From the IMG/VR virus record IMGVR_UViG_3300028048_000053, positions 1 through 34,691 of that record: a DNA stretch of 34,691 nt; one strand, written 5' to 3'. The notes below the pieces were generated by a model. The model saw nothing but the letters and a program-made list of their open reading frames with translations, searched no databases and was not told where the DNA came from. This DNA comes from a virus. This document shows positions 1,261-16,793 of the stretch, piece after piece. Both the position numbers and the translations under genes were made by a program. The number at the start of each line of letters is the position of its first letter. Position 1 is the first letter of the stretch.

Positions 1261-1286
1261 GCAAACAGAGAAAGGGAGAACTTACC

Positions 1287-2000: not shown

Positions 2001-2052
2001 AAAATTTTTTGTATAATAATATTAGAAAAAATGAATAAAGGAAGTTTGTTCG

Positions 2053-2498: not shown

Positions 2499-2559
2499 CA
2501 ACAAGCACAAGATGTGCTATACTACAATCAGAAAGAAAAAAGAAAAGGAGATAATAAAA

Positions 2560-2733
2560 ATGATGACTGTTCGTGAAATGATGGAGTTTCTGTCCCGCTG
2601 TGATGGTGACGACTATGTTCTGCCCCGTTCCGGTTTTGACGAAGAAACTTTTGAGACTGAGCTGGCTGTTCAGGTGGTTGCCCGTGATGGCTCCGGCGTC
2701 ATAGATGGCGTCTACTGGACCGAAGAAGATTAA
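2560..2733 (+). CDS. hypothetical acidic protein (57 aa)
   Basis: AAAAGGAGA SD then ATG 2560; in frame with ORF 2374..2733. Confidence 0.65.
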   Translation: MMTVREMMEFLSRCDGDDYVLPRSGFDEETFETELAVQVVARDGSGVIDGVYWTEED

Positions 2734-2736
2734 AGA

Positions 2737-2766
2737 ATGGGGGAAGAAATTTCCCCATTTTTTTTT
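2737..2766 (+). terminator. intrinsic terminator ATGGGGGAAG..CTTCCCCAT + T9
   Basis: perfect hairpin plus T-tract. Confidence 0.7.
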
Positions 2767-2775
2767 AAAAAAAGC

Positions 2776-2804
2776 TTGACAAATAGCCCGGGGTATGCTA
2801 TAGT
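2776..2804 (+). promoter_or_regulatory. class I promoter TTGACA-N17-TGcTATAGT, GCCCGGGG in spacer
   Basis: -35 2776-2781; -10 2799-2804. Confidence 0.65.
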
Positions 2805-2838
2805 ATAATCAGAAAGCAAGAGAAAAGGAGATACGAAA

Positions 2839-3024
2839 ATGAGCGAGCTGAGAGAAAAACTGATTGACCGCATGATTCGGATTTACGGCTTTGAGAATAA
2901 AATCGTGATTGACTTCTGCCGATGCTGTGAGACTTTTCCGAATGATGAAGCACATGACAAAACCCTGCGGACGCTGGTAATGGTCCACGAAGAGTGTCCC
3001 GTAATTGAGGAGGAGGATGAGTAA
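2839..3024 (+). CDS. hypothetical Cys-containing protein (61 aa)
   Basis: ORF track; AAAAGGAGA SD; hairpin terminators 3005-3085. Confidence 0.7.
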   Translation: MSELREKLIDRMIRIYGFENKIVIDFCRCCETFPNDEAHDKTLRTLVMVHEECPVIEEEDE

Positions 3025-3212
3025 TCCTCCTCATTTTTTGCATAATTATGCGGCCGCGCGCCACCGGCCCTAGCGCGCGGTTTTTGCATAAATATTCACT
3101 TTTCAGCAATTTTTTGTATAAATATTCATTGTAACACTTTGTAACCATTTTCCCAAAAAACTGTAACTATTTTGTTATTGACTTCTGGCTTACTTTGTGC
3201 TATACTTTAATC

Positions 3213-3315
3213 AAGGTTGAGGGGCGAAAACAAGATAACAACAGGGACTTGTAACTGCCCGATAAAGAAAAGATAGAAAAGGACTTTTCCAGCTATCCCC
3301 GCCCCTCAAAAAACT
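3213..3315 (+). ncRNA. candidate sRNA: promoter (TTGACT 3178-3183, TATACT 3201-3206) to structured ~100-nt transcript with no ORF
   Basis: long-range pairing GAGGGGCG(3218)...CGCCCCTC(3298); no start codon or SD. Confidence 0.35.
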
Positions 3316-3379
3316 TGAAAAAAATGAAAAAAAGGCTTGACAAACTCAAAAAGGTATGCTATAATAAGAGCGTAATCAA

Positions 3380-3397
3380 GGAGAGCTGATAAACTCC
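3380..3397 (+). promoter_or_regulatory. 5'-UTR hairpin family 1 (GGAG/CTCC, loop AGCTGATAAA)
   Basis: identical to 1243-1260 element. Confidence 0.6.
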
Positions 3398-3421
3398 ACA
3401 AACAGAGAAAAGGAGAAAATT

Positions 3422-3631
3422 ATGAAGATGCGTGCTACTACTAAGGCGGCTATTCAGGCCCTTATCGACAACAAGGCTGAGGTCTACCGCTGGACTGATG
3501 CCGAGGGATGGAGCGTCATCAACACCCCGGCATATGGCGTGTCCATGAGCACTCTGCGCAAGTACGCCACCTATGACAAGCGGCCCTATGGTGAGGGCGA
3601 GATGCTGACCGTCACGGGGTGGAGGGAGTAA
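3422..3631 (+). CDS. hypothetical protein (69 aa), paralog of 4972-5181
   Basis: ORF track; about 70 percent identity to the 4972 product (MKMRATTKAAIQALIDNK.. versus MKMKITTKKAIQTLIDNK..). Confidence 0.75.
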   Translation: MKMRATTKAAIQALIDNKAEVYRWTDAEGWSVINTPAYGVSMSTLRKYATYDKRPYGEGEMLTVTGWRE

Positions 3632-3886
3632 TCTTTCCACCATATATAGAGGCCATTCCCACTAAGCGAGAAGCCGTGGCCAGGAGGAAATAACGAAAAG
3701 GGATAAATACTCCAAAATGTCAACTTCTCATAGGAGGGGGGCTCTTGCCCCTCTCCTTTTCTACTCACCCTCGCGCTTTCTGACGCCAGCGCGAGGAGTT
3801 TAGATTTATATATAGATTACACAATTTTTACCCTATTTTTTTGTGCATATTGTCTACTTGATTTTTTCCTGCATCTATGCTATACT

Positions 3887-3995
3887 TTAATCATCAAGGG
3901 GCGGTGACGCTGACCGGCGGGAAGCAGATACCAAGGTAGCTACAAAGGAAAACAGAAACACGGCTTGTGAAGACACACCGACAAAATTTTTTGGA
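3887..3995 (+). ncRNA. candidate sRNA cassette (promoter TTGATT 3858-3863 / TATACT 3881-3886, no ORF)
   Basis: promoter consensus then ~100 nt lacking an ORF, ending in a hairpin plus T6. Confidence 0.3.
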
Positions 3996-4047
3996 GAAAT
4001 TCAAAAAACCCCTTGACAAACCCATGAAAGTGTGCTATAATAAAGGC

Positions 4048-4373
4048 ACAAGGTCAAGAGGGGAACCGAACAGGACGAAGTAAGGCACCGCGGATGACCC
4101 GAAAAGCGACGAGAGGTTGATAAAAGCTTGATACCCTCTTGACTGTCCACTTAAATAGCACTTCAACTATCAGGCAGACGGAGGTGTCGGAAAGATGTTT
4201 ACGAGCGGATTTCTGTAGCAACTGAATAAGCTGTAGAAAAACGTAAATGTAGGAACGGAGGCAGCTTCTAATGTATTGGTCTGGATTTGTGTAGCTACAA
4301 TTAAATGATGTGTTTTCGATAGGCCGGGACGATGCTTGCGCCCCGGCCTATCGCCCGGGCAAAAAACTTTTTT
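4048..4373 (+). ncRNA. candidate ~300-nt non-coding transcript (promoter TTGACA 4013-4018 / TATAAT 4036-4041) ending in a 12-bp perfect hairpin terminator (4310-4347) + GCCCGGGC + T-tract
   Basis: no ORF with SD on + strand; the minus-strand ORF 4170..4694 spans promoters and terminators and is judged spurious. Confidence 0.35.
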
Positions 4374-4445
4374 CAAAATACTATTGACAAGCTCGGAATA
4401 ATCTGCTATACTGTATTCAGAAAGAAACGAAAGGGGAATTTCAAA

Positions 4446-4637
4446 ATGTACACACTGAGTATTTACACCTATGAAATCAGCGACTATAACCGCCTTGACC
4501 TGTATATCAGCGGTTGCGAAGCGGCCTATGCCGCTTTCCGTAAGGCTTGCGAGCTTGCCGACCTCACGGGCGCTTTCGTGAGCCTGTGGGATAACGACAC
4601 GGGCGAGGTCGTTGCGGACAATGGGGAGGATGAGTAA
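4446..4637 (+). CDS. hypothetical protein (63 aa)
   Basis: class I promoter 4384-4415; ATG 4446 in frame with ORF 4332..4637; terminators follow. Confidence 0.7.
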   Translation: MYTLSIYTYEISDYNRLDLYISGCEAAYAAFRKACELADLTGAFVSLWDNDTGEVVADNGEDE

Positions 4638-4680
4638 TCCTCCCCATTGTCTACTGGCCCGAGCGCCCACGGCCCAGGCG

Positions 4681-4733
4681 CTCGGTTTTTGCATAAATAT
4701 TCAGTTTTGGGTGAATTTTTGCATAAATATTCA
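4681..4733. repeat. GCATAAATATTCA direct repeats flanking a 12-bp inverted repeat (TTTTGGGTGAAT / ATTCACCCAAAA)
   Basis: GCATAAATATTCA-like copies also at ~3070, 3107, 5520, 5554, 5583. Confidence 0.6.
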
Positions 4734-4801
4734 CCCAAAAATTTTTCAACTTTTTTCACAAAACCTATTGACATTTCAGAAAAACCTGCTATAATAGGTA
4801 G

Positions 4802-4880
4802 TGTCAAGGGGAGAAGAAAACAACCTCTCACAGGCGCGTAACCTGTTGTAAGTAAAATAAAATCTCTCATAAAAATGTAA
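4802..4880 (+). ncRNA. candidate short transcript from promoter TTGACA 4768-4773 / TATAAT 4790-4795 with no ORF
   Basis: hairpin ACAGG-cgcgtaa-CCTGT; no SD or ATG. Confidence 0.25.
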
Positions 4881-4927
4881 AAAACCCCTTGACAATTCCC
4901 CGTAAGTGTGTTATACTTAAACCATCA

Positions 4928-4947
4928 AAGGGAGCTGATAAACCCTT
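4928..4947 (+). promoter_or_regulatory. 5'-UTR hairpin family 1 (AAGGG/CCCTT, loop AGCTGATAAA)
   Basis: identical to 402-421 element. Confidence 0.6.
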
Positions 4948-4971
4948 GAAAACAGAGAAAAGGAGAACGCT

Positions 4972-5181
4972 ATGAAAATGAAGATTACGACTAAAAAGGC
5001 TATCCAGACCCTCATTGACAACAAGACCCCCATTTTCCGCTGGACTGATGCGGACGGGTGGAGCGTCATTGATACCGCCGCATATGGCGTGTCCATGAAA
5101 ACTCTGCGCAAATATGCCACCTATACCAAAACCCCCTGCGAGGGCGGCGAGATGCTGACCGTCATCGGGTGGAAAGAGTAA
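4972..5181 (+). CDS. hypothetical protein (69 aa), paralog of 3422-3631
   Basis: ORF track; family-1 leader; AAAAGGAGA SD. Confidence 0.75.
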   Translation: MKMKITTKKAIQTLIDNKTPIFRWTDADGWSVIDTAAYGVSMKTLRKYATYTKTPCEGGEMLTVIGWKE

Positions 5182-5215
5182 TCCGCCCTCACATATGAAA
5201 GGAGATATATTCGAT

Positions 5216-5419
5216 ATGGAAAACAGCAGAAAGAATACCTACAAGGGAGCTTCCATTTGCACCATCCTCACTATCCTCTTCGTCATCCTCAAACTGACCG
5301 GCGTGATTGCCTGGCCCTGGTTCTGGGTGCTGTTCCCGCTGATTCTTGACCTCGGCCTCGCCCTCATCATTCTGATCGTCATCATGGTCGTCAAGATTAT
5401 CGCCTTGAAACGCAACTGA
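5216..5419 (+). CDS. small membrane protein, 2 predicted TM helices (67 aa)
   Basis: GAAAGGAGA SD; ATG 5216 in frame with ORF 5195..5419; hydrophobic core ICTILTILFVILKLTGVIAWPWFWVLFPLILDLGLALIILIVIMVV. Confidence 0.65.
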   Translation: MENSRKNTYKGASICTILTILFVILKLTGVIAWPWFWVLFPLILDLGLALIILIVIMVVKIIALKRN

Positions 5420-5463
5420 CTACAATTTGAGAGGGGCTTTTGCCCCTCTCCTTTTCTTGCTTC

Positions 5464-6050
5464 AGCACTTTAACGATTTAAAGCGCTGAAGTTCAGCCGG
5501 GCGCCCGCGGTCCAAGCGCCCGGCTTTTGCATAAATATTCAGTTTTCAATGAATTTTTGCATAAATATACATACATTTTCTGCATAAATATTTTCACAAA
5601 ACCTCTTGACAGATTGCACGGGCTATGCTATAATACAATCAGAAAGCAAGAGAAAAGGAGGTAAAAAACATGAAATACTTTATTCACACCTATGACTGGA
5701 ATTTTGATACGATGGAACGGAAGCATGAAGTTAAAGAAATTAACCATCAAGAGCTTGCGGAACTTGTGCAATACCAAGAGGAAACCGCCTTTGACTACAA
5801 GTGGAATGAATTGAAACTTATCAAAATGACTGATACGGAAATGCACTTCGTGCTTAACAAGAAAACCAAATTAAATTATTAATCTTAAAAAAAGGTAAAA
5901 GAGGGGGATTGCTCCCCCTCTCTTTTTAAGGCAAACACTTTAACGATTTAAAGTGCTGAAGTTCAACCGGGCGCTTTCCCACGCAGCGCCCGGTTTTTCA
6001 ATTTAAATGGTTAAAGCGTAATTTTTGCCGCACTTTAACCATTTAAAGTG
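5464..6050. repeat. three copies of palindrome GCACTTTAA-N4-TTAAAGTGC (5464-5489, 5937-5955, 6031-6050)
   Basis: seen directly; each follows a gene terminator. Confidence 0.6.
5670..5882 (+). CDS. hypothetical protein (70 aa)
   Basis: class I promoter 5608-5640; AAAAGGAGG SD; ORF track. Confidence 0.7.
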   Translation: MKYFIHTYDWNFDTMERKHEVKEINHQELAELVQYQEETAFDYKWNELKLIKMTDTEMHFVLNKKTKLNY

Positions 6051-6138
6051 CTAAATCGCTAAATCCCAAAACATAAGTTCTGCTTATACCTGGATTGAAG
6101 TATTAGTACAGCGAATAGATAAAAATTTCAAAAAAGGC

Positions 6139-6167
6139 TTGACAAATTGCCCGGGCTATGGTATACT
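6139..6167 (+). promoter_or_regulatory. class I promoter TTGACA-N17-TGgTATACT, GCCCGGGC in spacer
   Basis: -35 6139-6144; -10 6162-6167. Confidence 0.7.
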
Positions 6168-6198
6168 CTAATCAAGATAAGACAAGGGGGAAACACCA

Positions 6199-6645
6199 AT
6201 GAAGAAAATTACTTGCAATCCTGTTACCACCTTCAAGAACAAGGGCGACAATCGGGAATGTGCTTTCGGCAACTATATCGGCATGAGCAAGGCATATCAC
6301 GATGATTTGAATTGCTTTGACGCTTCTGACTTCGTAAAGGGCGATATGCGGTACTCTGTCAAAGGTGACGGTTTCACTCTTATGAGCGGATATCTTGCCC
6401 CTGGGGCTGATTCTTTCGATGCTATATGGGCCGTGTTCCGTACTAAGGTTCATAGCAACTGTTTCGTCTATGTAGACGCTGATTTCAACGCCTATATGAT
6501 GAACATTGATGAGTTTGAGAGCTTCGTTTATATGTTCGGCTATATGGCAAAGGAAAGCGACAAGAACGGCGGCGGATGGAAAATCCGTTGCAAGCACGAA
6601 AGCAAAAAAATGGTCAGGTGGCTGTCCGAAAGGGTGGCCGCCTGA
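6199..6645 (+). CDS. hypothetical protein (148 aa)
   Basis: ORF track; SD AAGGGGGA; tandem terminators 6635-6700. Confidence 0.7.
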   Translation: MKKITCNPVTTFKNKGDNRECAFGNYIGMSKAYHDDLNCFDASDFVKGDMRYSVKGDGFTLMSGYLAPGADSFDAIWAVFRTKVHSNCFVYVDADFNAYMMNIDEFESFVYMFGYMAKESDKNGGGWKIRCKHESKKMVRWLSERVAA

Positions 6646-6700
6646 CCCCCCTCTTTTTTTGGCCCTCGCGCCACCGGGCCTGGCGCGAGGATTTCGCATT

Positions 6701-6719
6701 ATTGTGCAGGTTGCACAAT
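6701..6719. repeat. palindrome ATTGTGCAggTTGCACAAT (second copy of 1151-1169 operator-like site)
   Basis: seen directly. Confidence 0.6.
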
Positions 6720-6816
6720 TTTTGCCCCGATTTTTTGTGTATATTGCAGGATTGACTTTTTCCCAGAAGTGTGCTATACTTTAAACAATCCAAGAGGAAA
6801 GGAAAGTCGAAAATTG

Positions 6817-7266
6817 ATGCAGACTATTTACTTTGACATGGACGGCACGCTTGCCGACCTCTATAGTGTCTTTAACTGGCTGGGCAAACTGCGCTCTGAG
6901 GATGCAACCCCCTATATGGACGCCAAGCCCTTAATCCGCATGGCTCTGCTTGCCCGCCTTTTGAATGGCCTGCAAAAGCAGGGGTATCAGATTGGGATTA
7001 TCTCCTGGCTCAGCAAAGAATCTTCACGGGCATATGAGGTAGAGGTCTCTATTGCCAAGGAAGAGTGGCTGAAAAAGCATCTGCCGAGCGTGACTTGGGA
7101 TAAGATGCATTTCATTCCATATGGAGTTCCCAAGGCCGAGGCCGCAAACATTCAGCCGTTCGATATTCTGTTCGATGATGAACAAGCCAATATCGAAGCA
7201 TGGGAGCGCGCAGGTGGATGGGGCTTTTCCCCCGATAAAATCTTTGAAACTCTGCGGGGAATGTGA
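6817..7266 (+). CDS. HAD-superfamily hydrolase, 5'(3')-deoxyribonucleotidase-like (149 aa)
   Basis: N-terminal motif FDMDGTLADL matches HAD motif I as in the NT5C family; ATG 6817 in frame with ORF 6769..7266. Confidence 0.6.
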   Translation: MQTIYFDMDGTLADLYSVFNWLGKLRSEDATPYMDAKPLIRMALLARLLNGLQKQGYQIGIISWLSKESSRAYEVEVSIAKEEWLKKHLPSVTWDKMHFIPYGVPKAEAANIQPFDILFDDEQANIEAWERAGGWGFSPDKIFETLRGM

Positions 7267-7375
7267 GGGGGTATATCCCCCTTCACCTCTCGCCCGGGCA
7301 AAAAATTTTTTCAAAATACTATTGACTTTTCAAATAAGATGTGCTATACTACCAATAGAAAGAGAGGTTAGGAAA

Positions 7376-7522
7376 ATGAAAAAGAAAGAAGTTAATGCTT
7401 ATAAGAAAATGACCCCCGAACAGCTTGCGGCGTTCCTTGCGCTTCGCTGCCGTGGCGGCATAGTCCCCGCAAAAAAGGGCAAGGGTAGCTATAAGCGGAG
7501 TGAGTTTAAGAAAGGGGAATAA
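7376..7522 (+). CDS. small basic protein (48 aa)
   Basis: class I promoter 7324-7355; ATG 7376 in frame with ORF 7121..7522. Confidence 0.5.
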   Translation: MKKKEVNAYKKMTPEQLAAFLALRCRGGIVPAKKGKGSYKRSEFKKGE

Positions 7523-7525
7523 AAT

Positions 7526-7720
7526 ATGCAAATATTTGGTATAGACTGGTGTGAAAATTTTTGGGATGGAAATACCTCCCATGTTTGGGGTCGTATTTAT
7601 AAAAGATACAGCCCCTATAAAAAGAAATCCTATTCATATTTCTGGATTCGCCACAAAAAGAAAAACAAGACCTTTTATCGTATTACCAATAATTTTTTCA
7701 TTGAAAGAGGTAAAAGATGA
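7526..7720 (+). CDS. hypothetical Lys/Tyr-rich protein (64 aa)
   Basis: AAGGGGAA SD then ATG 7526; ORF track. Confidence 0.5.
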   Translation: MQIFGIDWCENFWDGNTSHVWGRIYKRYSPYKKKSYSYFWIRHKKKNKTFYRITNNFFIERGKR

Positions 7721-7850
7721 AAAATAGAGTTGCCCTTTTGGGTGACCCTATTTTTCGCCCGGGCGAATTTTTTTTATAAAACCTATTGACAAACTTGGCG
7801 CAATGTGCTATAATCACTATAGAAAGTTAAGAAAAAAGGAGATAATAAAA

Positions 7851-8045
7851 ATGAAAATCAAAGTTACCTATTACATCCCTGTGGAAAGAGAAATTGAAAT
7901 GACCCCCGAAGAATATTGTCTGTTCCATGCGGACGGTAAACTGCACGGTGAAAAGGTAATTCCCGATAATGCCATCTATGAAGATGTGACCCTGCCGGAA
8001 GAAGCCATAGAAGAGCTGACTGAATATTTTTATAAAAATTTTTAA
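7851..8045 (+). CDS. hypothetical acidic protein (64 aa)
   Basis: class I promoter; AAAAGGAGA SD; in frame with ORF 7803..8045; 10-bp hairpin terminator 8072-8110. Confidence 0.7.
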   Translation: MKIKVTYYIPVEREIEMTPEEYCLFHADGKLHGEKVIPDNAIYEDVTLPEEAIEELTEYFYKNF

Positions 8046-8272
8046 CATTATAGGAATCCCGGGCGCTCACCCTCGCGTGCCCGGGCGCCACGCGAGGGAT
8101 TCGGTTTTTTATGCAGTTTTGGCAAATTTTTTGCATAAAAATTCACCCCATAAAATTTTGATTTTTTTCCTAAAAAAGGCTTGACATTTTCATCCCCATG
8201 TGCTATAATGTGTATGCAATCGAGGGAGGGACGCCAACCCTGGTTAGCATTTTTGAAAGGATTTGATGCACT

Positions 8273-8935
8273 ATGGACAAGCGCAAGACCTATTACCTGA
8301 CCATCGACACGGAAACCGCAAACAATATGGACGACCCCATGATGTATGACATAGGGGGAGCTATCCATGACAAGCGGGGCATGGTCGAGGAAACTTTTTC
8401 CTTTGTCATTTATGACATTTTCTGCCGTGACCGCAGGCTTTTCAACACCGCCTATTATGCGGACAAGCGCCCCATCTATGAAGCGGGTATTGCGGACGGC
8501 TCTCGCAAGCTGGTAACTATCTTTACCGCAAAAAAGTATATTGCGGCCCTTAGCCGCAAGTATGATGTAAAGGCGATTATCGCCCACAATGCCCGCTTTG
8601 ATAACGGAAGTACCAACAAAACCCTGCGCTATATTACCAAGAGTAAGATGCGCTTTTTTCTGCCGTATGGTATCCCTGTTTGGGATACTCTGAAAATGGC
8701 TCGTGATACTATCTGTAAGCAACCCACTTATAAGCGGTGGTGTGCCGACCACGGTTTTCTTCAGAAGAACGGCACGCCGAGGGCTACCGCTGAAATTCTG
8801 TATCGTTACATTACTTGCAACGCAGAGTTTGAAGAAAGTCACACGGGGCTTGAAGATGTGCTAATCGAAAAGGAAATTTTTGCCAAGTGTATGGCACAGC
8901 ACAAGCCCATGCGGAAACTGTTGTGGGATAAATGA
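8273..8935 (+). CDS. DEDDh-family 3'-5' exonuclease (DnaQ / RNase T-like), 220 aa
   Basis: YLTIDTETAN (Exo I) and AHNARFD (Exo III, His type) motifs read in the translation; terminator 8938-8975. Confidence 0.7.
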   Translation: MDKRKTYYLTIDTETANNMDDPMMYDIGGAIHDKRGMVEETFSFVIYDIFCRDRRLFNTAYYADKRPIYEAGIADGSRKLVTIFTAKKYIAALSRKYDVKAIIAHNARFDNGSTNKTLRYITKSKMRFFLPYGIPVWDTLKMARDTICKQPTYKRWCADHGFLQKNGTPRATAEILYRYITCNAEFEESHTGLEDVLIEKEIFAKCMAQHKPMRKLLWDK

Positions 8936-9091
8936 TAAAATGGGGGGATTCAATCCCCCATTTTATTTTTCATAGCGAGTTAGCAATGGCTAACTTTTTC
9001 GCCCGGGCGATTAGCAAATTGCACAAAAAATAAACGATGTTTTTGTGCAAAATCCCATCTTGCAAAATGGGGGTAGGTCGTGCTATACTAT

Positions 9092-9170
9092 AATTGTTCC
9101 AAGGGGGAAGGCAAACAGCGAAAGCCTTTAGCGAGGTAGGACACTTCCCCCAACGGAACGAAAAAAATTT
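9092..9170 (+). ncRNA. candidate sRNA (CCAAGGGGGAAGGCAAACAG...ACACTTCCCCC family) from promoter TTGCAA 9045-9050 / TATACT 9080-9085
   Basis: no ORF; 8-bp stem GGGGGAAG/CTTCCCCC; two related copies at 13496-13600. Confidence 0.35.
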
Positions 9171-9295
9171 AAAAAAGGTCTTGACAAGCCGCTGAAAGTG
9201 TGCTATAATAAGACCGTAAGTGAGAGAGAGAAAATCTCCACTCCACCGCCTTGCCGCTACTAAAAGGCGTAAGAATCTGGTAGCACCACAAAGGG

Positions 9296-9311
9296 TAGTG
9301 ACCTACCACTA
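9296..9311 (+). promoter_or_regulatory. 5'-UTR hairpin family 2 (stem TAGTG/CACTA, loop ACCTAC) abutting AAAGGAG
   Basis: covarying copies at 13683-13698, 15560-15575, 17185-17200, 17614-17629. Confidence 0.55.
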
Positions 9312-9326
9312 AAGGAGTTGTGTACT

Positions 9327-9695
9327 ATGACTACTTCTAAGATGACCTACAAGACCGCTATCGAGTACGCTATCCGCAACCTGCCTGCCGATGCCCCTGT
9401 CGAGGTGACGGACAAGCTGACCGCCCTTATCACTTCCCTGGAGAAGAAGAGCGGCGCCGAGCGCAAGCCCACCGCCACGCAGGTGGCGAACGAGGGCTAT
9501 AAGGCCGCCATCATGGAGTACCTTTCCGATGTGGGCGAGCCCAAGACCGTGGGCGACATTCTGAAAGAGGTTCCTGCGGTGGCTGGCTTCTCTACCCCCA
9601 AGGTGTCCGCTCTGATGAAACAGCTCACCGAGGGCGGCGCTGTCGAGCGCTTGACTGACAAGCGCCGCACCTACTTCAAGGCGATTGTCGCCTAA
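9327..9695 (+). CDS. winged-helix-like DNA-binding protein (122 aa), paralog of 13714-14100
   Basis: C-terminal ~75 aa nearly identical to the paralog, including at nucleotide level; ORF track. Confidence 0.7.
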   Translation: MTTSKMTYKTAIEYAIRNLPADAPVEVTDKLTALITSLEKKSGAERKPTATQVANEGYKAAIMEYLSDVGEPKTVGDILKEVPAVAGFSTPKVSALMKQLTEGGAVERLTDKRRTYFKAIVA

Positions 9696-9853
9696 CCCCT
9701 GCGGGGGGTGGAGAAATCCACCCCCATTTTTTCCAAGGCGAGTTAGCGGCGGCTAACCGCCCGGGCGATTTAAATGTTGCCTGCGCAACATGAAAAATTC
9801 TTGACTTTTGGTTTCAATGTGGTATAATAAGACCGTGGAAAGGAGTTGATTTT

Positions 9854-10216
9854 TTGGATGAAAAACGCATAGCCCTCTTGATGAAACAGCTTGACATTTC
9901 CAGGGATGAAGCAATCGAAGTCTTGAAAGAGGACAGCGAAATTGACAAGGGCGCAGAACTGTTTGAACTAACCCCCGAACAGAAACAGGTCGAAAAGAAA
10001 ATGCGCCAAGCTGACCGCAAAGTGACTGCCTATAGCTGGAAACCAAGAGAGCGCAAACCCAACGAAACCAAAAGAAAGCTAATTCAAGATTTGGCCTTAA
10101 CCCTGCATCATAATCCTATGGTAGATAGCTGGGAAATCACCAATCAAGAACGGCAAATTGATTTTGAGTGCAACGGCACCAAATATCGTATCATTCTGAG
10201 CGCCCCCCGCAAATAG
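9854..10216 (+). CDS. hypothetical protein (120 aa), paralog of 12613-13014; TTG start; terminates with TAG
   Basis: AGGAG 8 nt before TTG 9854 (the only ATG nearby hits a stop after 4 codons); ends at the same relative point as the paralog, so TAG 10214-10216 acts as a true stop here. Confidence 0.6.
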   Translation: MDEKRIALLMKQLDISRDEAIEVLKEDSEIDKGAELFELTPEQKQVEKKMRQADRKVTAYSWKPRERKPNETKRKLIQDLALTLHHNPMVDSWEITNQERQIDFECNGTKYRIILSAPRK

Positions 10217-10410
10217 GGGGCGCTTTTCATTTTGAATAATTATTCACTTCCTTTGAGCCGCTGGCGCACGGGCGCGTGCCAGCGGTGTTCGGCGCAATCA
10301 GCACTTTCCACAAAAAACGTTGCGAAAATTTGTGCAATTTGCCATCTTGCTTTTTTCCTGAAATGTGCTATACTATAATCACAAAAGGAAAAGAAAAGGA
10401 GATGCTTCAA

Positions 10411-10686
10411 ATGATGTTCAATGATGCTGTGTATGTGGGTCGCGAGTGCCCGTTCTGCGGTGAGTACCACGAGGTACTTGTCAGCGAGGCTGACTTTGCC
10501 GCGTGGCAGGGTGGGGAGTTGGTGCAGGACGCCTTCCCCTATCTCTCCGCTGACGAGAGGGAAATCCTTGTCAGCGGCATCTGTCCCAAGTGTTGGGCAG
10601 AGACCTTTGGCGAGGAGGGAGACGAGGAGGAGGAGTGCTTTGAGCCTGGTCGCCCCTGCGTCAACATGTTTGAGCTGAACCCCTAA
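10411..10686 (+). CDS. Zn-ribbon protein (CPFCG...CPKCW), 91 aa
   Basis: ATG 10411 is 9 nt after AAGGAG; in frame with ORF 10276..10686. Confidence 0.65.
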   Translation: MMFNDAVYVGRECPFCGEYHEVLVSEADFAAWQGGELVQDAFPYLSADEREILVSGICPKCWAETFGEEGDEEEECFEPGRPCVNMFELNP

Positions 10687-10796
10687 TTATGGGGTTTAGT
10701 CGCCCGGGCGCAATTATGTAAACCAAAAAAATCTGAAAAAATTTCAAAAAAGGTATTGACATTTACGCCCCCCTGTGCTATACTATAATTGTTCCA

Positions 10797-11335
10797 AGGG
10801 AGTGGCCATTGACCAAGGAACTGTGGAGGGAAGCCAACATCGGCCCTGCGAGTACCAAATAATGATTGTTGGTGACGGTTAGACGCTTAAGTTGCTATGC
10901 GAACAAACACTTTCTCAAATAGCAGAAAGGGGTTAGAGACAGCAGAGCCACCCTTTTTTAGGCAGTTTTTTCCTGTGGCGTTCAAGGAAAAAATATTCTG
11001 ACTTTTTTAGTGTTCATCTGGTCATTCTTCACCAAACACTGGATTTTTCAAGAGGAAAGAATCTAAAAATAATTGGAAGAAACTGAATACTTTTAGGCAG
11101 TTTTCAATTCAGTCGCTGTGATAGAAAGAAACTCCCCCTTGCGGGGGCGGTGAGGTTAGTAAGGTAAGAGCTAACGGCTTATTGGGTCGAGCCGCTGAAT
11201 ATCAACATCCGCCCCCCAATAAGGGATATTTAAATACCTCTCTACTTTTTGTAGTGCTCCTTTTCTTTCTCTCTTTCTTTCTGTGGCGTGGGTAGGATTT
11301 TCCTACCCTTGCGCCCGGGCGAAAAATTTTTTGCC
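10797..11335 (+). ncRNA. ~540-nt apparently non-coding transcribed region between a consensus promoter (TTGACA 10761-10766) and terminator 11288-11335
   Basis: no ORF with SD; several long-range stems (CTTATTGGG...CCCAATAAG, CCCCC-ttg-CGGGGG); ORF 11283..11471 spans the next promoter and is judged spurious. Confidence 0.3.
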
Positions 11336-11412
11336 CCAATCAAATTTTCCCCTTGACATTTATAAAAAAATATGTTATTATAATAGTACAAAAAGAAAGG
11401 AGATAATAAACA

Positions 11413-11577
11413 ATGACAAACGCTATTTTGATTATCCTCTGCGTGTATTTTGCGGCTTCGGCCCTTGTTGATGCCGCAAAAGCAGACCGCAATCCCTGCT
11501 GGTCTACCTGCCTTGATGTGGTCTTTGACCTGGCTCTGCTGGTGGGCGTGTTTCATTTGATGGAGGTATTTTGCTGA
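11413..11577 (+). CDS. small membrane protein (54 aa)
   Basis: AAAGGAGA SD + ATG 11413; stop TGA overlaps next ATG (TGATG). Confidence 0.55.
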   Translation: MTNAILIILCVYFAASALVDAAKADRNPCWSTCLDVVFDLALLVGVFHLMEVFC

Positions 11578-12056
11578 TGAATACCGCAATTTTGCTTTTT
11601 GTCATTTGCACTCTTGCAAATGTTGTCATTGCGACTATCAAAAGTGTAATGACCATCAAGGGCGGCAAGGTTGCCGCTTCCATCTGGAACGCTCTCAGCT
11701 ATGGCCTTTACTCCTACATTGTGATAATGACCGCAAACGCCGACATTTCCACGCTCGGCAAGGTTTTAATCACCGTAGGCTGTAACTTAATCGGCGTGTT
11801 TTTCGTTAAGTTAGTAGAGGAAAAGATGCGAAAAGATCGCCTGTGGAAAATTGAAATGACAATTTATTCCACCAACGCCGACAAGATGCACCAAGAACTG
11901 GAAAATGCTGGTATCCCCAATAACTATGTAATTGCAGGCCGCCATGCTATTTTTAATTGTTTCTGCGATACTCAAAGTGACAGCGCAAACGCCCTTGCTA
12001 TTGGCAAGACCTACAACGCAAAAACTTTTGCATCAGAAACAAAACTTAATCCCTAA
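11577..12056 (+). CDS. membrane protein with soluble C-terminal domain (159 aa)
   Basis: ORF track 11571..12056; ATG 11577 translationally coupled; 3 hydrophobic segments. Confidence 0.65.
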   Translation: MNTAILLFVICTLANVVIATIKSVMTIKGGKVAASIWNALSYGLYSYIVIMTANADISTLGKVLITVGCNLIGVFFVKLVEEKMRKDRLWKIEMTIYSTNADKMHQELENAGIPNNYVIAGRHAIFNCFCDTQSDSANALAIGKTYNAKTFASETKLNP

Positions 12057-12116
12057 CGGCATTCCCCGCCTCGGCGGGGATGTTGCCCGGGCGCAAAAAA
12101 ATTTTTAAAAAAAGTC

Positions 12117-12145
12117 TTGACAAACTGCGCAAAGTACACTATACT
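12117..12145 (+). promoter_or_regulatory. class I promoter TTGACA-N17-TATACT
   Basis: -35 12117-12122; -10 12140-12145. Confidence 0.65.
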
Positions 12146-12179
12146 GTCTACAGAAACCAAGAGAAAAGGAGATACCAAA

Positions 12180-12494
12180 ATGAAAAAGGGTTTTGTTTCC
12201 ACGATGCGCAAGGGATTCCACATGACCTTCCCCAACGGCCTGACCGTTTCCGTCCAGTGGGGTGCTGGCAACTACTGCGACAACCACTTCCCCAAGGATA
12301 TGGATTTCACCTTCTCCAAGGACGCCGAAAGCGATACTGCCGAGGTTGCTGTCATCGATCCGCAGGGTGAGTTCCTTGACCCTCAGCGGTTTTTTGACTA
12401 TGAAATCAGATCTGACGGCATGGTGGCTGGCTGGCTCGACCCCTCGCAGGTTGTTGAACTGTTGGCGAATGCGCGCGACTGGCCTAACATCTAA
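12180..12494 (+). CDS. hypothetical protein (104 aa)
   Basis: AAAAGGAGA SD; ATG 12180 in frame with ORF 12117..12494. Confidence 0.7.
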   Translation: MKKGFVSTMRKGFHMTFPNGLTVSVQWGAGNYCDNHFPKDMDFTFSKDAESDTAEVAVIDPQGEFLDPQRFFDYEIRSDGMVAGWLDPSQVVELLANARDWPNI

Positions 12495-12612
12495 GGCCAG
12501 TCTTTCGCCCGGGCACGCATAAACATTCACTGAAACTGAATAAAAATTCTTCTTGACATTTGTTTATAGGTGTGCTATACTATGTATAGTCCAGGAGAAA
12601 GGAGAGGTAGTA

Positions 12613-13014
12613 ATGGCAAGACAGTCCGCTAAAGAGCGTGAAGCGCAGATTGAGCGCACGATGAAAGCCCTTGAAGTCACAAGGGAAGAAGCCCTTGAAA
12701 TCCTCGCAGAAGATGACGAGATTGACAAGGGCGCAGATCTTCACCCCTTGACCCCCGAACAGGAAAAAGTTGTTAAAAAGATGCGGCAGGCTGACCGCAA
12801 GCCCACGGTCTACAACTGGCAGAAAAAGCGTGAGCGTAAGCCCAACGAACTCAAAAGAGAAATCATCGACGATTTGTTCGGTTTCTTTTGCGAGAACTGG
12901 CCAGAAGTGGCAAAGAATGGAAACATCATCAACCCCGAAAGACAGATTGACTTTGAGCTTGGAGGGGAGAGCTTTTCCATCACTCTGACCCAGCACCGCA
13001 AACCCAAGGCGTAA
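12613..13014 (+). CDS. hypothetical protein (133 aa), paralog of 9854-10216
   Basis: shared block EIDKGA.L..LTPEQ..V.KKMRQADRK......W...RERKPNE.KR.II and a C-terminal ERQIDFE motif. Confidence 0.7.
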   Translation: MARQSAKEREAQIERTMKALEVTREEALEILAEDDEIDKGADLHPLTPEQEKVVKKMRQADRKPTVYNWQKKRERKPNELKREIIDDLFGFFCENWPEVAKNGNIINPERQIDFELGGESFSITLTQHRKPKA

Positions 13015-13134
13015 GGCGTAAGGGGGGAACATTTGTTCCCCTATCTGCGCCCGGGCGGCCGCAAACTGCACAATTTTAATACTCTGTTTTTGTGCAAAAC
13101 ACCATCTTGCTTTTTTAAGATAGTGTGCTATAAT

Positions 13135-13215
13135 AATAATTGTCAAGGGGCTGTAAACCGCGGGGCATCCAAATAAGTCCTGTACTGCGTGGTAAGAAAT
13201 TTCAAAAAGTTTTTT
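13135..13215 (+). ncRNA. candidate sRNA or leader between promoter (TTGCTT 13100-13105 / TATAAT 13123-13128) and tRNA-Lys
   Basis: no ORF; AT hairpin TTTCAAAAA-g-TTTTTGAAA at the 3' end. Confidence 0.3.
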
Positions 13216-13239
13216 TTTGAAAATCCCCTTGACAAACTT

Positions 13240-13314
13240 GCGGCCATGGTGTAATTGGTAACACAGTAGACTTTTAATCTATCATTCGGGGTTCAAGTCC
13301 CCGTGGTCGCACCA
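13240..13314 (+). tRNA. tRNA-Lys (anticodon UUU), CCA encoded
   Basis: manual cloverleaf: acceptor GCGGCCA/TGGTCGC, D stem GTGT/ACAC, anticodon stem GTAGA/TCTAT with loop CTTTTAA, T stem CGGGG/CCCCG with loop TTCAAGT. Confidence 0.8.
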
Positions 13315-13495
13315 ATTCCTTTCCTTTTTATTATCTCTCTCTTTCTTACAAAGAACCCTGCTAAAGCGATTTAGTGGGGTTTCTTTGTAGAATCGCCCGG
13401 GCGACTGGCAAAATGCACAAAACAATTTCTAAAATTCTATCTCATTTTGTGCATTTTGCCTATTGTAATCTGTGCGCCCTTGTGCTATACTATAA

Positions 13496-13600
13496 TCGTT
13501 CCAAGGGGGAAGGCAAACAGCGTTAGGACACTTCTTCAAAGGGGGAAGGCAAACAGTGACAGGGCACTTCCCCCCTCGGACGCCGAAAAAAATTCCAAAA
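13496..13600 (+). ncRNA. two tandem copies of the CCAAGGGGGAAGGCAAACAG sRNA-like motif from promoter TTGCCT 13455-13460 / TATACT 13478-13483
   Basis: sequence family shared with 9092-9170. Confidence 0.3.
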
Positions 13601-13713
13601 AACTCTTGACAAGCCGCTTTGAGTGTGCTATAATAATGGTGTCAATGAGGGAAGCCCCTCTTGAACATAAAAAAAATATGGGTAGCGACCTACCGCTAAA
13701 GGAGTTGTGTACT

Positions 13714-14100
13714 ATGACTAACACCAAGATGACCTACAGCAAGGCTATTGCCGCCTGTATCGACCTGCTGACCACTGGCGAGACTTCTGAGAATCCCACC
13801 GAAATCGTGGAGAAGCTGACCGCCCTCTCCGAGAGCCTTGCGAAGAAGTCTGGGGCTGAGCGCAAGCCGACTGCGACCCAGGTTGCCAACGAGGGCTATA
13901 AGGCGGAGATTCTCGCCTATCTGCGTGATGTGGCCGAGCCTAAGACTGTGGGCGACATTCTCAAGGAAGTCCCCGCCGTGGCTGGTTTCTCCACTCCCAA
14001 GGTATCTGCCCTCATGAAGCAGTTGGTTGACGAGGGTAACGGCCCCGTCGAGCGTCTGACCGACAAGCGGCGCACCTACTTCCGCATCAAGGCGGAGTAA
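13714..14100 (+). CDS. winged-helix-like DNA-binding protein (128 aa), paralog of 9327-9695
   Basis: family-2 leader; ATG 13714 in frame with ORF 13447..14100. Confidence 0.7.
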   Translation: MTNTKMTYSKAIAACIDLLTTGETSENPTEIVEKLTALSESLAKKSGAERKPTATQVANEGYKAEILAYLRDVAEPKTVGDILKEVPAVAGFSTPKVSALMKQLVDEGNGPVERLTDKRRTYFRIKAE

Positions 14101-14240
14101 GCCCCCTGCGCCCATCCCCTCCCCTGCAATAGTGGGGGAGGGGCGCGCCCGGGCGAAAAAAATTTTTTTTAAAAACCCCTTGACAAACCTCTATAAATGT
14201 GCTATACTTTAGATGTTCCAAGAGGAAAGGAGAGAGTGTA

Positions 14241-14480
14241 ATGGAAAAGAAGTTTAACATGGTAGTGACCCTTACCAATGGTAAAGTCCTGCGCCACTAC
14301 GGACTTTCCTTGCGCATGGCGGCAACTATGAAATTGCACTATCAAGAGAAGTACCCTAACACCCTTGAAGAAATCGAAACCGTTTACGCAGGGACGAACA
14401 AAAGAGCTACGGCGCTTTGCTATTTCATTGAAGATGGAGAAAACGATCCTATCGCTTTCTATGAGCGTTACGGCTGGTAA
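14241..14480 (+). CDS. hypothetical protein (79 aa)
   Basis: class I promoter 14183-14215; AAAGGAGAG SD; in frame with ORF 14199..14480. Confidence 0.7.
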   Translation: MEKKFNMVVTLTNGKVLRHYGLSLRMAATMKLHYQEKYPNTLEEIETVYAGTNKRATALCYFIEDGENDPIAFYERYGW

Positions 14481-14494
14481 AAGGAGGAAATAAA

Positions 14495-14740
14495 ATGGCT
14501 ATTTCTATTAAGCGTGAAAAGAACGAGCGCGGCGTGACGGTCGGCTCTCTCAAAGTGGGCGACACTTTCATGTATGACAACCGTATCGGCGTTATCGTTG
14601 ACCGCAATGGTCACTGTTTTCCCATGGATTTTGCAACCTGTGCCACCTTTCACAAACATCCCTGGACATCCGAAGCACTTCTTCCGCAGGAGATTGTTCT
14701 GCCTATCGAGGTCGAAATGACTTGCAAGGTCGTGGGCTAA
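14495..14740 (+). CDS. hypothetical protein (81 aa)
   Basis: AAAGGAGGA SD then ATG 14495; ORF track. Confidence 0.75.
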   Translation: MAISIKREKNERGVTVGSLKVGDTFMYDNRIGVIVDRNGHCFPMDFATCATFHKHPWTSEALLPQEIVLPIEVEMTCKVVG

Positions 14741-14857
14741 GCCTTTCCCCGCTTCGGCGGGGAAATCGCCCGGGCAAAAAACTTTTTTCAAAAACCTATT
14801 GACATTTTCCTAAGTATGTGCTATACTATAATCACAAAAGGAAAGGAGATAATCAAA

Positions 14858-15130
14858 ATGACCTATTCCATCCAGATTTATCGCATGAATGCTGGCTCTT
14901 GGGAAACCTTTGTTCAGTTTACCCCCGTCGTCTTTGACGAAATGATCGAAGCTGGCAAGGCTATGTTCGTCAATCCTCTACTGTCTGCGGAGAATGTTGC
15001 TATCGTTGATGACACAACTGGCGAAGTTCTCTGGGATGCCTGTTCCGATGATGAGGACTGTGAGCCTGCGGACATTGATGATGATTGCGGCTTTGACCCC
15101 TACGAGGGCTGTTTCACCTACGACTGCTGA
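14858..15130 (+). CDS. hypothetical acidic, Cys-containing protein (90 aa)
   Basis: AAAGGAGA SD; ATG 14858 in frame with ORF 14816..15130. Confidence 0.7.
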   Translation: MTYSIQIYRMNAGSWETFVQFTPVVFDEMIEAGKAMFVNPLLSAENVAIVDDTTGEVLWDACSDDEDCEPADIDDDCGFDPYEGCFTYDC

Positions 15131-15244
15131 CCCCCTACAAGGGGGTCAGTTTGCCCGGGCGAAAAAATTTTTAAAAAGGTCTTGACAAACTCTCAGTAAT
15201 GTGTTATACTGTATTCAGAAATCAAAGGAAAGAGGGAATAAACC

Positions 15245-15457
15245 ATGGTGTGTCCTAAGTGCGGCCCTGGGGCAGCTGTAATGTCCGATGAGTGTATTGA
15301 TGTTGAGGAGTACGACGATGATAACATTGCCGTAACCTACGAGGGGACTTGTCTGTGGTGCAAACGCAAATACCAATGGACGGAAATCTATAAATATAGC
15401 CGTATCAAAAATATTATTGAAATTGGTACAGCTCCGCAGGAGGAAGAAGAGAACTAA
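15245..15457 (+). CDS. Zn-ribbon protein (CPKCG...CLWCK), 70 aa
   Basis: ORF track; class I promoter 15185-15215. Confidence 0.7.
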   Translation: MVCPKCGPGAAVMSDECIDVEEYDDDNIAVTYEGTCLWCKRKYQWTEIYKYSRIKNIIEIGTAPQEEEEN

Positions 15458-15589
15458 CCCCCCTCTTTTTCTTCCCCCTGCGCCCGGGCGCAAAAATTTT
15501 TTTTCAAAACCCCCTTGACAACCCTCCAAGAGTGTGTTATAATAAAGGCACATTGAGGGTGGTGGCCTAACACCAAAGGAGAATTTGTT

Positions 15590-16195
15590 ATGAACAAGAG
15601 TGACTTTTTCGAGCGTGAAATCCAGTTCATTGAGGACATTGACCTCCAAGACTTTGTTCGCTTTTTCTTCAATGAAAGATGCGGCGACTGGTTTTGGAAG
15701 TCTGGGGCTTCCAGTTCTGGGAAATATCATCCCCAGTTCACCAAGGGCGAGGGTGGACTTGTGCGCCATACTAAAGCCGTTGTGTGGGTCTGTGAGGAAC
15801 TTCTGCGCATGAGTTCCTACGCCTACATGAAAGACATTTACAAGGACTACGCAAGGGTCGCCTGCCTGCTTCACGATACACGCAAGTATGGCGGCGGGGA
15901 TGAAGAGGATAAAAGTTATTATCCACGTCATGGTGAAGCCGCCGCAAATGATGTTGGTGTGGCGTGGCGAGAGTTTTTCCACTGTCATTCCTGCCCCGAA
16001 TTGCTTTTGATGGCTATTCACTCCCACATGGGACAGTGGACGGAAAACAGAGAGGACAGACCCTTTACCAACATTGACCGCCTGGTACATCTGTCGGACT
16101 ACATCGCAAGCCGTCCTTTCTGGGACATTCCCGACATTACCACCGAATACAACGAAGCCAATGCAAAGATGATTGAAGATTCTCTGCCTTTCTAA
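15590..16195 (+). CDS. HD-domain phosphohydrolase (201 aa)
   Basis: H..H...LLHDTRKYG...H motif arrangement typical of the HD superfamily; family-2 leader; ORF track. Confidence 0.6.
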   Translation: MNKSDFFEREIQFIEDIDLQDFVRFFFNERCGDWFWKSGASSSGKYHPQFTKGEGGLVRHTKAVVWVCEELLRMSSYAYMKDIYKDYARVACLLHDTRKYGGGDEEDKSYYPRHGEAAANDVGVAWREFFHCHSCPELLLMAIHSHMGQWTENREDRPFTNIDRLVHLSDYIASRPFWDIPDITTEYNEANAKMIEDSLPF

Positions 16196-16286
16196 TCCCC
16201 CTCCCCTCTGTCCCAGTGACAGAGGGGAAATCGCCCGGGCGAAAATTTCCTCTTGACAAGAGGCCAAAAGTATGCTATACTGTATT

Positions 16287-16400
16287 TACAATTCACGGAG
16301 AAATCCGTTTTACATACCTGCGGACTGCCGAACAGGCTTTTTCCAAAATTTCTCATGGGCCTGCATAGGATAACATGACTTTCTGCGGGAATTTTTGAAA
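16287..16400 (+). ncRNA. candidate sRNA cassette (promoter TTGACA 16255-16260 / TATACT 16278-16283; no ORF)
   Basis: only very short ORFs; hairpins CGGAGAAATCCG and CCTGCGGACTGCCGAACAGG. Confidence 0.25.
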
Positions 16401-16466
16401 ATAATACTTGACAAACAAGCACAAGTATGTTATAATAAAGGCACAAAAAGGAAAGGAGATAATAAA

Positions 16467-16694
16467 ATGCTCGATCACATTGGCGGCATCCCCGATGGAC
16501 ACATTGTAGAGTTTCCGCACTCTGCGCGCACTTTCATGAAGGTCTGCACAAGAGATGGGCAGGGCGGAGTTGTTGACATCACTACAGGTGAGCTGATTAT
16601 GATAAGCGACCTGCCGCGATACGGTATTGATGTATGGTGCTCTGAGCACTACGGAGAAAGGGCTACTATTCAGTACGAAGTAGAGGACGATTGA
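16467..16694 (+). CDS. hypothetical protein (75 aa)
   Basis: AAAGGAGA SD; ATG 16467 in frame with ORF 16395..16694. Confidence 0.7.
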   Translation: MLDHIGGIPDGHIVEFPHSARTFMKVCTRDGQGGVVDITTGELIMISDLPRYGIDVWCSEHYGERATIQYEVEDD

Positions 16695-16793
16695 CCGTCC
16701 TCTTGGCCCGGGCGAAAAATTTTTTTAAAAACCTCTTGACAAGTGATTAGCTTTGTGCTATAATGAAGTCACAAAAGGAAAGGAGATACAAAA

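Follow-up and report, generated by a model that had tools for sequence, protein, structure and literature searches.

The host-takeover module of Bacillus phage SPO1 and the terminal early regions of other Herelleviridae carry dense, tiny early genes at the genome end, and annotation of the early region of a large Firmicute phage usually yields rows of tiny unknown proteins. The window analysed here, which is the whole 34,691-nt stretch of IMG/VR virus record IMGVR_UViG_3300028048_000053, contains a comparable region: its first 19 kb are an early-gene array from the end of a ~172-kb uncultured phage genome. As in SPO1, each gene has a strong sigma-A promoter and an unusually strong Shine-Dalgarno (SD) sequence, and some promoters stand in tandem. 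The array does lie at a contig end. Unlike in SPO1, ~20% of the promoters drive no open reading frame (ORF), and neither the DNA nor the one protein searched by megablast, tblastn and blastn found homology to SPO1 early genes, or any useful similarity to cultured phages, in 50,697 phage records. Nine of these ORF-less, promoter-driven segments, units A to I, are described here. Seven of them (A, B, C, D, E, G and H) begin with a module of 60-130 nt, close to the promoter, whose first nucleotides base-pair with its last. One of these closed modules, from unit D, represents a new family of structured RNAs with 60+ metagenome variants and selection at the RNA level. Closed RNA modules and cassette boundaries made by the palindrome GCCCGGGC are, to our knowledge, not described for SPO1.

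Other systems share single features with this array. The PeSL (promoter-early stem-loop) cassettes of T4-like phages likewise repeat a composite motif of stem-loop and early promoter at the borders of small genes with mosaic content (PMC2839356, PMC4122927). They belong to another phage group, use another host promoter type and are described as recombination points and not as sources of ORF-less structured RNA; only the repeated motif and the mosaic order are seen here. The 5' stabilisers of Firmicutes (ermC, aprE, cryIIIA STAB-SD and SP82 early mRNA; PMC7509114) likewise have a helix that starts within a few nucleotides of the 5' end, and the purine-rich, SD-like AAGGGG at that end. The modules of the array are larger (60-130 nt), have conserved loops at least in D, can occur without a downstream message, and may have the -35 box of the next promoter as their 3' strand. 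The nearest published parallel is Listeria phage CKA15, in which highly transcribed, promoter-driven regions lack ribosome binding sites (PMC12282133); these are also ORF-less, have no canonical terminators and belong to the early or the tRNA-rich region of a large phage of Firmicutes. The likeness is architectural, with no sequence relation expected, and unlike in CKA15 there is conservation and covariation evidence here for one family. The large ROOL and GOLLD RNAs of Firmicute phages resemble unit F, which is likewise long (~530 nt) and ORF-less, belongs to a phage of gut or rumen type and has a tRNA-type trailer. F differs from them by having no match to an Rfam covariance model, in a library that we take to include the ROOL and GOLLD models. 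A last comparison is with small RNAs derived from tRNA 3' trailers; the CU tract that follows the tRNA-Lys of unit G would remain as a trailer RNA after processing.

The module of unit D is closed by a helix between positions 4803-4811 and 4885-4893, and the -35 box of the next promoter, TTGACA, is located at 4889-4894. The closed region contains a hairpin at 4830-4846 with the loop CGCGUAA, and the unpaired segments GAAAACAACCUCUC and UGUAAGUAAAAU, which are conserved. Across contigs in which the HD protein is 69-78% identical and the flanking genes differ, D is 82-96% identical, and it is more conserved than the adjoining coding DNA. Pattern scans found ~10 copies in IMG/VR and 79 metagenome stretches, which give 63-68 distinct variants, and a covariance model scores members above 100 bits and everything else below 47 bits. 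In a set of 10 sequences, 100% of the cells are paired and 6 of 13 pairs have changes on both sides; in 46 sequences aligned with MAFFT, 98% of the cells are paired, with double changes in 10 of 14 pairs (88 cells). No shuffle of 500 scored as high, and in controls with slid positions 10-48% of the cells were paired. The 5-bp internal hairpin occurs in many sequence versions; its 340 cells include five G-U pairs but neither A-C nor any other mismatch, a pattern indicative of the sense RNA.

In its usual context D is followed by a strong promoter whose -35 box lies inside the closing helix. D also stands before a terminator, in the related loci L056, L154 and L220 and in one of the two copies of L207, and before a tRNA, at a gap of 6-7 nt, in L175 and L193. 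In most of the copies linked to a terminator or a tRNA, the closing helix persists with strands that bear no relation to TTGACA (AUCAAAAGG/CCUUUUGAU, AAUCAGGAAG/CUUCCUGAUU and UGUUAAUAGG/CCUAUUAACA); the exceptions are one L207 copy, which keeps CCCCTTGAC, and the L154 copy, in which the helix is mismatched. No start codon is conserved among the variants. The core of D is absent from 185,579 species genomes, so it gives no clue to the host. With 60+ sequences, a fold supported by covariation and three contexts (promoter, terminator and tRNA), the family is ready for Rfam-style curation. A tRNA-like reading of D, judged by eye, was dropped since the loop position equivalent to U33 varies.

The closing helix is common to seven of the nine units. 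In these (A, B, C, D, E, G and H), with the transcript start set at 7 nt after the -10 box, pairing begins at position 1-5 of the transcript. The modules open with GUCAAGGGG, UCAAGAGGG or GUUCCAAGGG and often finish with CCCCUUGAC, a sequence that doubles as the -35 box of the promoter downstream. The helix partner in B and D, CCCCUUGA(C), overlaps the next -35 hexamer: the 5' UCAAGGGG of B pairs with CCCCUUGA at 4009-4016, and the -35 box of the unit C promoter is at 4013-4018. The G leader has the same pairing of UCAAGGGG with CCCCUUGA, in this case 7 nt before the tRNA. The helix of A is formed by GAGGGGCG (3220) and CGCCCCTC (3300), a stem that was already quoted in the original prediction, and is extended by CAAG/CUUG, and the 5' domain of C is closed by GGUCAAGAGGG (4052) and CCCUCUUGACU (4144). 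Folding energies were compared with those of dinucleotide shuffles, with the 3' helix partner included for B, D and the 5' domain of C. Several units had been called strongly structured, and seven of the nine fold better than the shuffles, namely A (z = -3.4), B (-2.8), the C 5' domain (-2.1), D (-3.5), E (-3.7), the G leader (-2.4) and I (-2.3); H reaches only -1.6. The z-score of B is -2.8 with the -35 box and +0.9 without it. A -35 box that is folded into the closing helix of the upstream RNA ties the layout of transcription units to RNA structure.

The closed module is portable between contexts. It can separate the two tandem promoters in front of a protein gene (A, B, D, E and H), precede a tRNA (G, and D in two relatives), begin a longer ORF-less cassette (C and F) or, in the relatives with terminator-linked D, stand alone. 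The relatives are contigs of 60-240 kb from IMG/VR and JGI metagenomes, and in ~1.3 Mb of this related DNA there are 154 unique ORF-less units between promoters. In the 150 that remain after redundancy filtering, pairing between the two ends has an energy of -14.0 kcal/mol, versus -9.1 kcal/mol in shuffles (p = 7e-18). Of the promoters in relatives, ~16% first meet another promoter and ~4% a terminator without any ORF; about one in five in the sampled relatives drives structured RNA rather than protein. A pattern built from the -10 box and the 5' end has 110 matches in IMG/VR; downstream of these lies in some cases an ordinary gene, with the short local hairpin GUUCC-AAGG-GGAAC, and in the others a long closed unit that leads to a further promoter. 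Some relatives have arrays of 2-4 ORF-less units in succession. Sequence analysis establishes the promoters, the lack of ORFs, the closing helices and the recurrence of the architecture across the family. Three IMG/VR loci (L146, L148 and L151) have chains of 3-4 ORF-less promoter-module units with promoters of the form CCCTCTTGACA-N17-TATAAT-N6-TGTCAAGAGGGG, in which the sequence around +1 repeats the -35 region in inverted form.

The nine units had been proposed as promoter-to-terminator cassettes for small RNAs (sRNAs). All nine near-consensus promoters exist, within ~15 nt of where they had been placed, and they have consensus matches and a TG-extended -10 (Table 1). No ORF with an SD sequence follows any of them up to the next promoter or cassette boundary, and the interleaving of ORF-less segments with protein cassettes is supported. 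From the quality of the promoters, abundant early expression is a reasonable expectation. The ends of the units are different from those proposed, since none of the nine 3' ends, described as hairpins with T-runs, is among the canonical terminator-like sites of a scan of the window. A promoter-to-boundary cassette is present only in C, F and G, which reach GCCCGGGC at 4353, 11313 and 13395 after a hairpin and have a T-run 8-15 nt away. The other six units (A, B, D, E, H and I) have neither a terminator nor GCCCGGGC and run into A/T-rich DNA just upstream of another promoter, in most cases a stronger one, which is located 85-125 nt downstream and is followed by a protein gene. These six are the upstream halves of tandem-promoter cassettes, and as encoded here they would be mRNA 5' leader modules unless cut out. 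As six units lack a terminator and lie between tandem promoters, the set does not consist of nine independent sRNA genes.

Table 1. Positions of the units and of other features of the array (window coordinates; promoters as -35, spacer length and -10)
Feature	Position	Strand	Description
Early-gene array	1-19 kb	one direction	~40 mini-cassettes
Unit A	3178..3336	+	promoter 3178-3206 (TTGACT-17-TATACT); ORF-less module of ~124 nt from ~3213
Unit B	3858..4019	+	TTGTGCA-class promoter 3858-3886 (TTGATT-17-TATACT); module from ~3893
Unit C	4013..4360	+	promoter 4013-4041 (TTGACA-17-TATAAT); ~310-nt ORF-less RNA from ~4048
Unit D	4768..4894	+	promoter 4768-4795 (TTGACA-16-TATAAT); conserved RNA module 4802-4894
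Unit E	9043..9186	+	TTGTGCA-class promoter, -35 at 9060, -10 ending 9089 (TTGCAA-18-TATACT)
Unit F	10756..11320	+	promoter 10756-10784 (TTGACA-17-TATACT); ~530-nt ORF-less RNA from ~10791
Unit G	13090..13402	+	TTGTGCA-class promoter 13107-13134 (TTGCTT-16-TATAAT); closed leader 13141-13239
Unit H	13447..13611	+	TTGTGCA-class promoter 13463-13491 (TTGTAA-17-TATACT); module 13498-13585
Unit I	16253..16407	+	promoter 16253-16281 (TTGACA-17-TATACT); ~120-nt ORF-less segment
Second promoter class, TTGTGCA element	1185, 3841, 9043, 10330, 13090, 13447		6 sites vs 0.01 expected
Duplicated cassettes	3320-3633/4865-5177; 8999-9677/13387-14076; 9880-10093/12654-12870
Related loci with CU tract downstream of tRNA			L147, L212, L224, L195, L162, L177

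The proposed sRNA near 13100, which is unit G, holds a tRNA-Lys(UUU) at 13240-13314, recognized by the Rfam tRNA model RF00005 (68.4 bits versus a gathering threshold of 29) and by ARAGORN. In a search of Rfam 15, at gathering score and at E up to 5, tRNA was the only family to reach the gathering score, and units A to I, including C and D, had no other credible match. The two long candidates, C and F, are both complete ORF-less cassettes as proposed. The corrected anatomy is therefore one tRNA, six tandem-promoter modules and two long ORF-less cassettes; what the original prediction observed is partly confirmed and its interpretation is partly supported. The lesson is that ORF-less consensus promoters should be checked for tRNAs and for tandem promoters downstream before sRNA genes are called.

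Unit C continues after its closed 5' domain with ~165 nt of further sequence, and its 3' part has a strong hairpin at 4310-4347, with a perfect stem of 11 bp and not 12 bp as first read, and the GCCCGGGC boundary at 4353-4360. In unit F the 5' domain (10791-10960; the 5' 100-170 nt) is conserved in five phage contigs with weak covariation. F also has an insertion of ~130 nt flanked by UUUUAGGCAGUUUU direct repeats, which is absent from L001, and a closed domain at 11136-11225 (GGGGGCGG...CCGCCCCC), which is common to L001 and L002; the quoted stem CTTATTGGG/CCCAATAAG is present at 11169/11208. The 3' end of F is composed of a CU tract (11254-11285), a hairpin GGGTAGGA/TCCTACCC (11290-11308) and the boundary (11313-11320), and it is homologous to the tRNA trailers of related loci. 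Unit G has the same arrangement after its tRNA: the CU tract spans 13316-13347, the hairpin 13349-13388 and the boundary 13395-13402. In six of seven related loci (Table 1), a tract of 30-40 nt of pyrimidines with CUCCUUUCU follows tRNA-Lys or tRNA-Leu, and then a hairpin and GCCCGGGC. The sequence CUCCUUUCU is the 3' end of Firmicute 16S rRNA, which is its anti-SD end. The CU tracts are the reverse complement of the standard purine-rich 5' untranslated region (UTR) of the family and are complementary to the extended SD sequence, GAAAAGGAG or GGAAAGGAG, of 21 genes in the window. The tracts may serve as anti-SD RNAs or Rho loading sites, or may be remnants of UTRs in inverted orientation, and their position after phage tRNAs suggests a route by which phages could interfere with translation initiation.

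Units E and H share a motif because their whole cassettes are duplicated, at 67% identity (Table 1). The module of E is a closed hairpin at 9096-9160 (GUUCC..GGGGGAAG...CUUCCCCC..GGAAC), which is followed by a promoter at 9181-9209 and a winged-helix-like gene at 9327-9695. H has two tandem 36-nt copies of this type of hairpin (13501-13536 and 13537-13572) and then a promoter at 13606-13634 and a gene at 13714-14100, which is a paralogue of the gene at 9327-9695. The shared motif CCAAGGGGGAAGGCAAACAG occurs as proposed, at 9099, 13501 and 13537, with 0 expected, and it is identical at 20 of 20 positions in cassettes that are otherwise 67% identical. It is kept in other phages, and a promoter-hairpin-promoter-gene module like that of E is also present in L002 and L003; the exact E/H 18-mer has no match in IMG/VR. 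A CRISPR-repeat-like reading of the tandem motif in H was dropped, as there are no spacers. Unit A leads, without terminator or boundary, into a promoter at 3337-3365 and a gene at 3422-3631. Within unit I there are, at 16295-16312, a small ACGGA/UCCGU hairpin with UUUU after it and also a helix, CCUGCGGA/UCUGCGGG; the unit precedes a promoter at 16408-16436 and a gene at 16467-16694.

Taken as a whole, the best explanation, to which we give a probability of about 0.5, is that the closed modules provide early RNAs with a paired 5' end and are either released or kept as leaders. The closing helix would hide the RNA 5' end, and the module and any RNA attached to it would then resist 5'-end-dependent decay by RppH, RNase J1 and RNase Y in a Firmicute host. 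Where a terminator, or an RNase P site with its tRNA, lies downstream, the module would be released as a small stable RNA, and otherwise it would stay as an mRNA leader. The conserved unpaired segments, which are the D loops, the E/H loop and the CU tracts of F and G, would bind a partner; SD regions or the ribosome are the likeliest, given that the anti-SD end of 16S rRNA is copied in the CU tracts. There is precedent for the stabilisation of Firmicute and SP82 phage mRNAs, by stem-loops at the 5' end and by sequences that resemble an SD (PMC7509114, citing Hue 1995 and Sharp and Bechhofer 2005). A wider proposal, that the closed modules, of which D is the clearest, are a new class of phage RNA elements that act with the CU tracts as abundant decoys or regulators and redirect host ribosomes, RNases or RNA polymerase during takeover, is speculative and we consider it doubtful.

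Several results weigh against the protective role of the closed modules. Unit I has no 5' closing helix, and C and F taken whole fold no better than shuffles (z = -1.1 and -0.9). Homologues of A are near-identical strains only (L142, 92%; L169, 96%), the one homologue of C (L142) is 99.4% identical and so uninformative, and a search for A, B, C and I through 1.7 Mb of related loci reached only near-identical strains, with no distant homologues. Module interiors are mostly singletons (138 of 255). In the strand-asymmetry test on the 150 units the reverse complement pairs equally well (-13.9 versus -14.0 kcal/mol), with no excess of G-U in the sense strand, and whole-unit folding energy has no asymmetry either (77 of 154). 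Outside D, the inverted repeat could therefore be a feature of promoter DNA, and RNA-level selection for the generic units is not proven. A plain stabiliser needs no conserved unpaired sequence and leaves the loops of D unexplained, and sites in the window complementary to these loops are not above chance. Pairing of the CU tracts with phage start regions (-20.2 versus -18.1 for composition-matched shuffles) is mostly an effect of composition. Transcript starts, read-through and processing are all inferred. Two conserved features stand out besides the D family, namely the -35 box within an RNA helix and the anti-SD-like trailers after tRNAs.

The units could instead be independent, abundant, trans-acting sRNAs that pair with host or phage mRNAs and block ribosome binding sites with their CU-rich, anti-SD-like loops. 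This agrees with the copies of D that are free-standing promoter-to-terminator genes in L056, L154, L220 and L207 or that directly precede tRNAs, where RNase P would free them, with the conservation of the unpaired D segments, with the complementarity of CUCCUUUCU in the CU tracts of F, G and the tRNA trailers of relatives to the SD of 21 genes, and with the completeness of C and F as ORF-less cassettes. It is nevertheless unlikely, as six of the nine units have no terminator or boundary here and one is a tRNA, the D loops have no specific target in the window, the CU pairing is mostly compositional, and A, B, C and I are not conserved. Rather more doubtful is that the RNA is functionless, a by-product of tandem promoter stacking and cassette shuffling, with the inverted repeat acting in DNA as a protein operator or being a recombination scar. 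The equal antisense quality of the closing repeat and the lack of a sense G-U excess fit this account, as do the presence of CCCCTTGACA upstream of promoters that lack a module, the mostly unique interiors, and the mosaic gene order and patchy divergence in relatives; terminator-promoter repeats mediate shuffling in T4-like phages (PMC2839356, PMC4122927). Evidence against it comes from D, whose hairpin and closing helix covary strongly and persist with non-TTGACA sequences where no promoter follows, whose hairpin has G-U and no A-C, and which exceeds neighbouring coding DNA in conservation, and from the E/H motif, which is unchanged within divergent cassettes.

Given still less weight is the proposal that the modules are cis signals, either RNase III sites that split leader from message, as in SP82 and T7 early mRNA, or antitermination RNAs, as HK022 put and Bacillus EAR. 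Long closed helices just downstream of early promoters, in an array rich in hairpin boundaries, would suit such a role; SP82 early mRNA is a substrate of Bacillus RNase III (Panganiban and Whiteley 1983, cited in PMC4838370), and D is always at the transcript start before unrelated genes. The lack of any Rfam match to the modules speaks against it, polymerases from the second promoter would escape modification, and helices of 8-11 bp are short for RNase III. That the units encode very small or non-canonically initiated peptides is very improbable. Open frames of 21-35 codons do exist, with TTG (9094-9195), GTG (10775-10882, or ATT at ~10809) and ATG (10897-11001) starts, but they lack an SD at the proper distance and the candidate frames in E and F are not kept in relatives: the E frame meets a stop in L002, ATG 10897 is CTG in L001, and the F frame 10809-10882 has 8 non-synonymous and 0 synonymous changes versus L182 and a stop in L195. 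Nor do the D variants have a start codon in common. The protective, closed-module reading remains the one that we prefer.

The setting of the units is the array itself. The window matches the first 14.6 kb of a 171,985-bp ENA metagenome contig at 99.99% identity, from the first base of that contig, which places the array at a contig end. An A-run of ~25 nt lies at the window start (14-46), and the matching contig begins at window position 6; this could be either the genome end or an assembly break. The promoter motif is also found in bins of metagenome-assembled genomes from gut and rumen, mostly labelled Clostridia, with unreliable binning; the promoter type, the SD type and these bins suggest a Clostridia host in an animal gut or rumen. 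A scan for sigma-70/sigma-A-like promoters in window positions 1-18 kb gave 75 sites, versus 24.3 +/- 5.5 expected in shuffles; 31 of them, on the + strand, match at least 11 of 12 positions, and nearly all sites are on the + strand with a TG-extended -10. The second promoter class (Table 1) carries the TTGTGCA element ~10 nt before its -35, which is weak, and has an extended -10. Four of its six sites drive the ORF-less units B, E, G and H, and the element, which is kept in relatives, could be an operator.

The GC-rich 8-bp palindrome GCCCGGGC has 26 copies versus 0.37 expected, all within 1-19 kb (371-18957). It closes every complete cassette (for example at 4353, 7292, 11313, 13395 and 14768), often as CGCCCGGGCG, and after each of the 26 boundaries there is a tract with an A-run and a T-run and then the next promoter. 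The palindrome looks as if it were a collapsed terminator. In the left part of the array, longer hairpins of the form CCGGGCGC-loop-GCGCCCGG with a T-run stand where GCCCGGGC would be. The products of the array are mostly tiny proteins without assigned function; the exceptions are an NT5C-like nucleotidase, the HD protein, AbrB/MazE-fold proteins and the two winged-helix-like paralogues. Whole cassettes, with promoters, leader and gene, are duplicated inside the array at 67-74% identity, and between relatives gene order is mosaic and identity patchy.

The array ends at 18780-19760, with an ORF-less stretch after promoters at 19102 and 19173. This stretch holds direct repeats in two pairs, 19287/19524 and 19365/19583, each with a distance of ~220-240 nt between its members. 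The GC content falls to 0.29 at 20-22 kb of the window. Six tRNA genes (Tyr, His, Trp, Ile-GAU, Ile-UAU and Lys-UUU) are clustered at 32730-34641, and this cluster holds a second tRNA-Lys(UUU) besides that of unit G at 13240.

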